Below, in pieces: positions 62,507 through 64,000 of a stretch of DNA of 64,000 nucleotides; the first letter of the stretch is position 1, and the number at the start of each line of letters is the position of its first letter. The notes under the pieces were generated by a model. The model saw only the letters and a program-made list of their open reading frames with translations, had not been told where the DNA came from and did not search any database. The stretch lies in the NCBI RefSeq assembly GCF_055900595.2, contig NZ_CM148325.1; one strand, given 5' to 3'. The position numbers and the translations under genes were made by a program.

Positions 62507-64000
62507 ATGGCTTCGACAAATGCGCAGCAAATAAAAAATAATGATCAAAACTCTTTATGCGGTCTGGGTGACAAAATACGCCGCCTGGCCGCCGGAGTTT
62601 GTTTATTCACACAAATTTTTTTCCCCGTCATCGCGACGGCACAAAATGTGGTACACGCTAAACCCCAGATGACAGTTTCATCTCCTCCCCCTCTTACAGA
62701 AAATAAAACCGTACCTTACACGCTTGGCGCGCTGGAATCAGCGCAAAGTGTTGCTGACCGGTTCGGTATTTCACTGGAAGAGCTTCGTCGTCTTAATCAG
62801 TTTCGTACTTTTGCTCGCGGCTTTGATAACGTGCGTCAGGGTGAAGAACTGGATGTTCCGGCAACAACCTCGCAGAGAAGTCATGAGCTACAAAATGCCG
62901 TATCACCGGCGAATGCCGAAAACACTCTGGAGAATCAAATAGCCAGTACTTCACAGCGAGTTGGCACTCTGCTTTCACAAGATATGAATAGTGAGCAGGC
63001 GAGCAGCATGGCGCGTGGTTGGGCGTCTTCAGAAGCCTCTGGCACGATGACTGATTGGTTAAATAACTTTGGCACCGCGAAAATCTCTCTGGGCGTGGAT
63101 GAAGATTTTAGCCTGAAAAATTCGGAATTCGACTTCCTGCATCCATGGTATGACACACCCGATTATCTGCTCTTCAGCCAGCATACTCTTCACCGAACGG
63201 ATGATCGCACCCAGATCAACACCGGTTTAGGCTGGCGTTACTTCACCCCCAGTTGGATGTCAGGCATCAACCTGTTTTTTGATCACGACCTGAGCCGCTA
63301 TCACTCCCGCGCGGGACTTGGCGCAGAATACTGGCGTGACTATCTGAAGTTGAGCAGCAATGCTTATATCGGCCTGACCGGCTGGCGTAGCGCACCAGAA
63401 TTGGATAATGACTACGAAGCCCGCCCGGCCAACGGCTGGGATTTACGCGCGGAAGGCTGGTTACCAGCCTGGCCACAACTGGGTGGAAAACTAGTCTATG
63501 AACAATACTATGGTGATGAAGTGGCGCTGTTTGACAAGAATGATCGTCAAAGTAATCCCCATGCTATTACCGCGGGCCTCAACTATACCCCCTTCCCGCT
63601 TCTGACTCTCAGTGCGGAACAGCGTCAGGGGAAGCAAGGTGAAAATGACACACGTTTTGCCGTTGATCTGACCTGGCAACCCAGCAGCTCAATGCAGAAA
63701 CAGCTTAACCCGGACGAAGTGGCCGGACGGCGCAGTCTGGCCGGTAGTCGTTATGACCTGATTGATCGCAACAACAACATCGTTCTGGAATACCGCAAGA
63801 AAGAGCTTATCCGCCTGAGTCTGCTGGACCCAGTGAAAGGGAAATCGGGAGAAATAAAATCGCTGGTTTCCTCGCTACAGACCAAATATGCCCTGAAAGG
63901 CTATAAAATCGACGCTGCTGCGCTGGAATCTGCTGGAGGAAAAGTCAGCACTTCCGGAAAAGATATCACGGTCACGCTGCCTGGTTACCGCTTCACTAAC
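62507..64000 (+). CDS. intimin/invasin-family inverse autotransporter adhesin (5' part; runs off window end)
   Basis: Own translation from ATG 62507 (open to window end, so absent from ORF track): signal-like N-terminus, LysM-like segment (YTLGALESAQSVADRFGISLEELRRLNQF), then beta-barrel-like region (RSLAGSRYDLIDRNNNIVLEYRKKELIRL). Confidence 0.7.
   Translation, partial: MASTNAQQIKNNDQNSLCGLGDKIRRLAAGVCLFTQIFFPVIATAQNVVHAKPQMTVSSPPPLTENKTVPYTLGALESAQSVADRFGISLEELRRLNQFRTFARGFDNVRQGEELDVPATTSQRSHELQNAVSPANAENTLENQIASTSQRVGTLLSQDMNSEQASSMARGWASSEASGTMTDWLNNFGTAKISLGVDEDFSLKNSEFDFLHPWYDTPDYLLFSQHTLHRTDDRTQINTGLGWRYFTPSWMSGINLFFDHDLSRYHSRAGLGAEYWRDYLKLSSNAYIGLTGWRSAPELDNDYEARPANGWDLRAEGWLPAWPQLGGKLVYEQYYGDEVALFDKNDRQSNPHAITAGLNYTPFPLLTLSAEQRQGKQGENDTRFAVDLTWQPSSSMQKQLNPDEVAGRRSLAGSRYDLIDRNNNIVLEYRKKELIRLSLLDPVKGKSGEIKSLVSSLQTKYALKGYKIDAAALESAGGKVSTSGKDITVTLPGYRFTN

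Follow-up and report, generated by a model that had tools for sequence, protein, structure and literature searches.

Very probable assignment of a partial reading frame at the edge of an Escherichia coli genome window to the adhesin gene iatD

Which gene begins at position 62507 of the window analyzed here, i.e., the whole 64,000-nucleotide stretch of contig NZ_CM148325.1 (NCBI RefSeq assembly GCF_055900595.2), and does its presence next to yjiJ tell us anything about the lifestyle of the strain that carries it? The original prediction, made from the sequence alone, took the frame for an inverse autotransporter of the intimin/invasin family, possibly a strain-specific adhesin, and read it, together with an effector-like neighboring gene, as pointing to a pathogenic or host-associated lineage. 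Our analysis indicates that positions 62507-64000 are very probably the 5' end of iatD, the chromosomal E. coli gene for a type Ve (inverse autotransporter) adhesin. That is, the prediction was right about the gene, which has already been named and partly characterized, and the find is an ordinary one; the suggestion about the lineage turned out to be too strong.

Identity of the reading frame

The frame starts with an ATG on the plus strand and continues for 498 codons without a stop to the last letter of the window, confirming by translation the earlier statement that it is absent from the mechanical list of open reading frames because it remains open past the window end. Its start codon is the one assigned by RefSeq in homologous genomes (L001:12208, equivalent to window 62507) and is preceded, 5 nt ahead, by a GGAAGG Shine-Dalgarno sequence at 62496-62501, while in-frame stops close off the sequence further upstream.

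Assignment of this frame to iatD rests on identity and synteny since the NCBIfam database has no IatD family model. Specifically, a megablast search of 5,426 complete E. coli genomes with a 1.7-kb query returned best matches of 99.0-99.5% nucleotide (nt) identity, the closest complete RefSeq genome being that of LR-58-1 (99.5%), and intact matching copies carry the RefSeq label 'iatD: inverse autotransporter IatD'. The 498 amino acids (aa) encoded in the window are 95.0% identical to IatD of strain SMS-3-5, which is encoded at the same locus, and the gene order yjiJ-iatD-kptA was found in SMS-3-5 as well as in the sequences L001, L003, and L008 (yjiJ of the window ends at 62296). The name iatD goes back to Goh et al. 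(2019, mSphere, PMC6714894), who introduced it for EcSMS35_4876 of SMS-3-5, an environmental strain, and for whose IatD group the site between yjiJ and kptA is conserved in all strains. Their search for IatD required >75% identity across 80% of the length, a cut-off exceeded by both the window (95.0%) and its full-length proxy L008, introduced below (90.7%). In the same study, IatD of SMS-3-5 was located at the cell surface by immunofluorescence and, when over-expressed in K-12, promoted biofilm in static and flow assays but neither autoaggregation nor extracellular-matrix binding; its predicted architecture comprises a signal peptide, a LysM domain, a barrel, Big_1 repeats, and a C-type lectin cap (PMC6714894).

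Given that E. coli encodes related proteins, it is important to consider whether the frame might be a copy of, or a mis-assigned, YeeJ or IatC rather than IatD. The 498 residues are 77% identical to a YeeJ-type protein (a name taken from RefSeq yeeJ matches, as NCBIfam gave none), IatC-type proteins are ~70% identical to them, and the IatC N-terminal model is the top NCBIfam match. However, IatD copies are 95-100% identical to the window protein vs. 70-77% for the paralogs, the locus is the iatD locus between yjiJ and kptA, with the RefSeq yeeJ matches (~77% nt) located elsewhere on the chromosome, and the score reached with the IatC model is only a third of the value required. Hence, the paralog reading is already refuted by synteny and identity, and we give it practically no credence. 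YeeJ itself was rejected as a candidate on both identity, which is well outside the orthologous range (77% aa; 76-77% nt), and locus, its matches being at other chromosomal positions; more generally, readings as intimin, YeeJ, IatC, or SinH were ruled out on score, identity, and locus. The gene was also distinct from FdeC/EaeH, YeeJ, and SinH, the adhesins with which the original prediction had proposed to compare it.

Several points weigh against the assignment to iatD, or against what can be concluded from it, and should be kept in mind. NCBIfam is without an IatD-specific model and its top match, the IatC N-terminal model, reaches 827 bits vs. a cut-off of 2,400. The experimental data on IatD come from an allele that is 90.7% identical to the window type (81.6% at the tip) and was over-expressed in K-12. 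Further, the passenger and the intactness of the gene cannot be read from the window because only 28% of the gene lies inside it, and lesions are frequent in iatD of close relatives, although none is found inside the window.

Architecture of the protein and state of the gene

The domain set and the domain order of a type Ve autotransporter are present in the gene (Table 1), in agreement with the earlier placement in the intimin/invasin family. As to the barrel, the Pfam model IAT_beta (PF11924) is covered in full by aa 148-423 (E=6.7e-109), and phmmer aligned aa 185-430 end to end with invasin (4E1T, E=9.6e-83) and intimin (4E1S, E=1e-68). The same two structures were the best Foldseek matches in the PDB, with target-normalized template modeling (TM) scores of 0.91 and 0.89, respectively, for an AlphaFold model that was built from 40 diverse homologs and has a mean predicted local distance difference test (pLDDT) value of 72.7, the barrel blocks being mostly at 83-95. 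By our reading the model contains about 12 barrel strands between aa 190 and 388 (DSSP lists 14 segments), followed by a helix at aa 403-409. The beta-barrel-like region noted originally is thus real by sequence and fold, and the hidden Markov model search proposed for detecting its loss found the barrel in place. The order is inverted, with the barrel (aa 148-430) N-terminal and the passenger C-terminal (Big_1 array at aa 537-1534 in L008), and beta-strands at aa 450-490 of the model mark the passenger start.

At the N-terminus, a polar extension and the residues KIRR precede a 19-residue hydrophobic core (aa 27-45), with a Kyte-Doolittle maximum of 1.97 (best 15-residue mean) at aa 28-43 and a modeled helix at aa 22-50. 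This heuristic test is consistent with the signal-like N-terminus described before, and we infer cleavage after ATA45 or VHA51; long signal peptides are typical of the inverse autotransporter family. The LysM-like segment of the original prediction was harder to confirm since the Pfam LysM model gives only a non-significant match to the window protein itself (E=0.27 over 21 residues, aa 79-99). When 40 homologs were scanned individually, 18 of them matched at E<=0.001, and 31 when the threshold was relaxed to E<=0.1 (hits were counted irrespective of their position); the homolog consensus at this segment reads as a LysM motif. Consistently, aa 68-118 are modeled as beta-alpha-alpha-beta (block pLDDT of about 78-89, and 85-89 in a model of the segment), and a Foldseek search of the PDB with the segment alone returned 50 matches (best E 4e-3), mostly LysM domains, including those of a Thermus thermophilus NlpC/P60 endopeptidase, MltD, plant chitinases, and the periplasmic LysM of intimin (2MPW); the remaining matches were trypanosome mitoribosome and phage phiCD508 chains. 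The modest E-values are expected because the domain has only ~50 residues. Taken together, the homolog scans, the model, and the fold search lead us to accept the segment as a predicted LysM domain that is degenerate but real. Between this segment and the barrel, two linker helices were modeled with low-to-moderate confidence (aa 141-157 and 162-186, block pLDDT 51-60), partly inside the IAT_beta envelope, which begins at aa 148.

Table 1. Coordinates of the iatD features and of the linked haplotype block in the window
Feature	Position	Strand	Basis or remark
iatD, codons 1-498 of 1,746	62507..64000	+	uninterrupted frame; first 28% of the gene, cut by the window end
Predicted extended Sec signal peptide, aa 1 to ~45-51	62507..62659	+	hydropathy and modeled helix
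Predicted periplasmic LysM domain, aa 68-118, degenerate sequence	62708..62860	+	homolog scans and fold
Predicted periplasmic helical linker, LysM to barrel, aa 141-186	62927..63064	+	modeled helices
Outer-membrane translocator, a beta-barrel of 12 strands that encloses a linker helix, aa 185-430	63059..63796	+	structure alignments
Surface passenger start, aa 431-498	63797..64000	+	conserved post-barrel segment and beginning of first Ig-like domain
yjiJ-iatD intergenic region, presumed iatD promoter/leader	62297..62506	+	210 bp, AT-rich
Remainder of haplotype block travelling with iatD	57529..62296	+	K-12 comparison
Pentapeptide-repeat gene, 685 aa	57891..59948	+	low GC, 0.346
Divergent yjiK	60208..61050	+	81-82% to K-12 (yjiK-yjiJ)
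Divergent yjiJ	61118..62296	+	81-82% to K-12 (yjiK-yjiJ)

A mechanism may be proposed from homology with intimin, invasin, and YeeJ, and is consistent with the matched structures. The long signal peptide would route IatD through the Sec pathway, the LysM domain would stay in the periplasm and, by analogy, may anchor or dimerize the protein on peptidoglycan, and the beta-barrel assembly machinery (BAM) would insert the 12-stranded barrel into the outer membrane. The C-terminal passenger would then pass outward through the barrel in a hairpin conformation, its Ig-like domains folding sequentially, and would serve as a stalk that presents the lectin-like tip to a ligand.

To recover the part of the gene beyond the window we relied on L008 (GCA_044149025.1), a draft contig that is 100% identical to window positions 51118-64000 (12.9 kb). 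L008 belongs to a large number of public contigs that encode a YjiJ protein identical to that of the window, and is the only one among them with such a match over the 12.9 kb. Over the iatD part of the window, L003, L004, L008, and L009 are all 100% identical, and L003, L008, and L009 carry an intact iatD of 5,241 bp that encodes 1,746 aa and has a single, terminal stop. The downstream extension and domain count proposed at the outset could therefore be carried out on L008, in which the first Pfam match of the passenger (aa 537-631) is best described by Invasin_D3. It is followed by seven copies of Big_1 in the region aa 745-1437 (E 2e-17 to 3e-13), a second Invasin_D3 at aa 1443-1534 (E 4.5e-10), and Invasin_D4 at aa 1554-1624 (E=7.6e-4), while the putative C-type-lectin-like tip matches Intimin_C only weakly (aa 1680-1715, E=0.16). 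Two more Ig-like domains probably went undetected in the gaps of ~100 residues (aa 431-536 and 632-744). The Ig array, of ~10 Big_1/Invasin_D3 domains, and Invasin_D4 are clear in L008, and the lectin-like tip is weak.

Alternatively, iatD of the source genome might be a pseudogene, broken past the window end by an insertion sequence (IS), a frameshift, or a deletion, and encode no functional adhesin. Lesions of all three kinds do occur in relatives. LR-58-1, the closest complete RefSeq genome, has an IS3 element (L002:13955-15214) inserted at what would be ~230 bp beyond the end of the window, in addition to a perfect 30-bp tandem duplication (TGGCACGATGACTGATTGGTTAAATAACTT; L002:12741-12800, equivalent to window 63040-63069) that adds 10 residues in frame to the periplasmic linker. 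WL297 has lost 1.55 kb of iatD, including LysM and barrel (junction L007:11554-11537), and this deletion ends at the position of the LR-58-1 IS3, at gene nt ~1720; the shared position suggests that the IS mediated an adjacent deletion in a lineage ancestral to both. In L004, which differs from the window at 2 positions in 12.9 kb, an IS lies near codon 1589, L006 has a 1-bp insertion, and L010 lacks 22 codons in frame, while three of the 12 next-best RefSeq matches are annotated as fragments and not as iatD. On the other side, the window part is without these lesions and identical to the intact copies, and L008, the only contig identical over the 12.9 kb, encodes the intact 1,746 aa, as do L003 and L009. 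The early interruption that the original prediction named as its own refutation was thus not seen in this proxy. Accordingly, we consider a pseudogene unlikely, and iatD is most probably intact in the source genome, judging from its identity to these copies.

Haplotype block and distribution

The earlier remark that no inverse autotransporter is known next to yjiJ in K-12 was correct: in MG1655, yjiJ and kptA are only 12 bp apart, and both iatD and the 685-aa pentapeptide-repeat gene are missing. Yet the difference from K-12 extends well beyond iatD. Homology to K-12 at 96% ends at window position 57528, and yjiK-yjiJ are 81-82% identical to their K-12 counterparts vs. 96-97% for the flanks. 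Among the complete genomes, 635 carry yjiK-yjiJ of the window type (>=95%) and 4,706 the K-12 type (81-82%), while iatD, counted when at least 80% of the full gene was covered, is present in 638 of the 5,426 (11.8%). The match between the 635 and the 638 genomes indicates that iatD is part of an alternative haplotype block of ~10.4 kb starting at 57529 rather than a simple insertion. At the other end, kptA encodes 184 aa ending in FLEW in K-12 (L011:5485-5498) vs. 190 aa ending in FLECPKKRAD in L008 (16811-16833), and hence the boundary of the variable block lies inside the last kptA codons. There are, therefore, two deep yjiK-yjiJ haplotypes, whose origin may be an old polymorphism or introgression.

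The leader between yjiJ and iatD has a GC content of 0.352 vs. 0.492 for the whole window, and the iatD part of the window is ordinary in this respect (0.507). In a consensus scan of 62200-62700, neither a convincing sigma-70 site ahead of the iatD start codon nor a terminator downstream of yjiJ was detected; the sole promoter-like match falls within the iatD frame, and counts equal the shuffle expectation. Expression of iatD may occur by read-through from yjiJ, and silencing by H-NS would be a guess based on the AT-rich leader and on the precedents of FdeC and IatB.

The pentapeptide-repeat gene, which lies between a DUF3343 gene (ytiA in K-12) and yjiK, is the neighbor that had been described as effector-like. 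Its product resembles the type III secretion system effectors PipB/PipB2, as well as HetL/Qnr, through the repeat region only (aa ~374-510) and scores far below the family cut-offs (48.9 vs. 274 bits for PipB/PipB2). The ~370-aa N-terminal part has no NCBIfam match, and the length of the protein varies from 685-696 aa on the YjiJ-matching contigs to 657 aa in SMS-3-5.

By identity, the iatD-positive genomes separate into a class of 14 that carry the window-type allele (>=99%) and one of 625 with 90-95% nt identity (the SMS-3-5/O157 type, which includes O157:H7 and O145); all other matches to the query are to the yeeJ 5' region (~77%). The 11.8% prevalence agrees with the 6-10% reported previously (PMC6714894) and supports the view of a strain-specific adhesin. 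Carriers include SMS-3-5 (environmental), poultry, cattle, and human fecal isolates, and O157:H7, and the same block, including the pentapeptide gene, is found across this range. That is, with environmental, commensal, animal, and enterohemorrhagic E. coli (EHEC) strains among its carriers, iatD is strain-specific but not a pathogen marker, and to read it as a sign of a pathogenic or host-associated lineage is too strong. A stronger form of this inference would be that the gene is intimin (eae), or a marker of an attaching-effacing or invasive pathogen, to which the 48-52% identity of its barrel to those of intimin and invasin and its occurrence in O157:H7 and O145 could be thought to point. 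However, the NCBIfam intimin model gives 297 bits vs. a cut-off of 1,400, the neighbors are core yji genes with no flanking genes of the locus of enterocyte effacement (LEE), the same gene is present in the environmental SMS-3-5 and in many commensal and animal isolates, and IatD showed no extracellular-matrix binding and no autoaggregation (PMC6714894). Score and context alike thus exclude membership in eae, and we deem this reading exceedingly improbable.

A few other features of the window were recorded. The 'immigration control' region (~38200-49230) contains genes for a BrnT/BrnA toxin-antitoxin pair and for a stand-alone restriction endonuclease, together with a type I restriction-modification system (M, S, R) and another S subunit paired with an N-6 methylase (gene names transferred from strain MB52); its hsdS part (41856-43105) is mostly unmatched in MB52, except for a 224-bp piece (42371-42593). 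At 34541-34811, upstream of btsT, the window is without the 10.3-kb hydroxyproline/amino-acid catabolism cluster and AraC regulator of MB52 (L014:11544-21802). Three tandem tRNA-Leu(CAG) genes at 13917-14238 (+), presumably the leuVPQ cluster, and three matches to the REP-derived (repetitive extragenic palindromic) naRNA4 (Rfam RF02564) in regions 5831-6008 and 13695-13777 are ordinary E. coli features.

Allele classes and relation to other adhesins

YeeJ is an inverse autotransporter of E. coli K-12 that binds peptidoglycan and promotes biofilm. It is also the paralog with the closest translocator (77% aa over 498 residues that include signal peptide, LysM, and barrel) and shares with IatD the LysM domain, the barrel, the Big_1 array, and the predicted lectin-like cap (PMC6714894), but is encoded at another locus and is longer (2,358-2,367 aa), with nt similarity to iatD stopping ~1.9 kb into the gene. 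IatC (EcSMS35_4024 in SMS-3-5) provides the best NCBIfam model (827 and 1,143 bits vs. 2,400) and is ~70% identical at the N-terminus; it likewise has LysM and a lectin-like cap and promotes biofilm on over-expression, and differs in length (2,459-2,965 aa), in its variable passenger, and in locus (PMC6714894). Intimin, of EHEC and enteropathogenic E. coli (EPEC), and invasin, of Yersinia, share the barrel fold and its linker with IatD (the TM scores of 0.89-0.91 given above), as well as the Ig-like stalk and the Invasin_D3/D4 modules, and intimin also shares the periplasmic LysM. Compared to both, IatD has a much longer stalk, a tip that matches Intimin_C only at E=0.16, and no Tir/LEE context.

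The closest relative with experimental data is IatD of SMS-3-5 (EcSMS35_4876, ACB20062.1), which has the same length as the L008 proxy (1,746 aa), the same domain order, and the same neighbors, i.e., the pentapeptide-repeat gene, the SdiA-regulated-domain gene (yjiK), yjiJ, iatD, and kptA. The window-type protein, as represented by L008, is 90.7% identical to it over the full length (91.7% nt), and this divergence is distributed unevenly: 98.2% aa identity in the barrel, 90.6% in each of the LysM region and the Ig array, and 81.6% in the last 212 residues, which comprise Invasin_D4 and the lectin-like tip. A diverged tip with a conserved barrel is a pattern like that of the intimin subtypes, and the window type could, therefore, recognize a ligand other than that of the SMS-3-5/O157 type. 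The seven iatD copies compared previously are >98% identical to each other (PMC6714894), and hence the rare window-type class lay outside that sample.

Based on these results, it is tempting to hypothesize that the window allele is a second, rare IatD subtype with a possibly different ligand and that the block is an old alternative haplotype, which selection or introgression may have maintained in ~12% of E. coli despite repeated inactivation in individual lineages. We regard this as a tentative possibility rather than the likely explanation. The frequent disruption by IS, frameshift, and deletion would fit a gene under fluctuating or weak selection.

In conclusion, what is added here to the previous knowledge of iatD is only mildly new, namely the rare divergent allele, the linkage to a deep yjiK-yjiJ haplotype, and the frequent inactivation. 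The importance is small beyond the correct annotation of the locus as a named accessory adhesin gene of E. coli; for work on type Ve adhesins, the results mean that there are at least two IatD allele classes, which differ most at the presumed ligand-binding tip.

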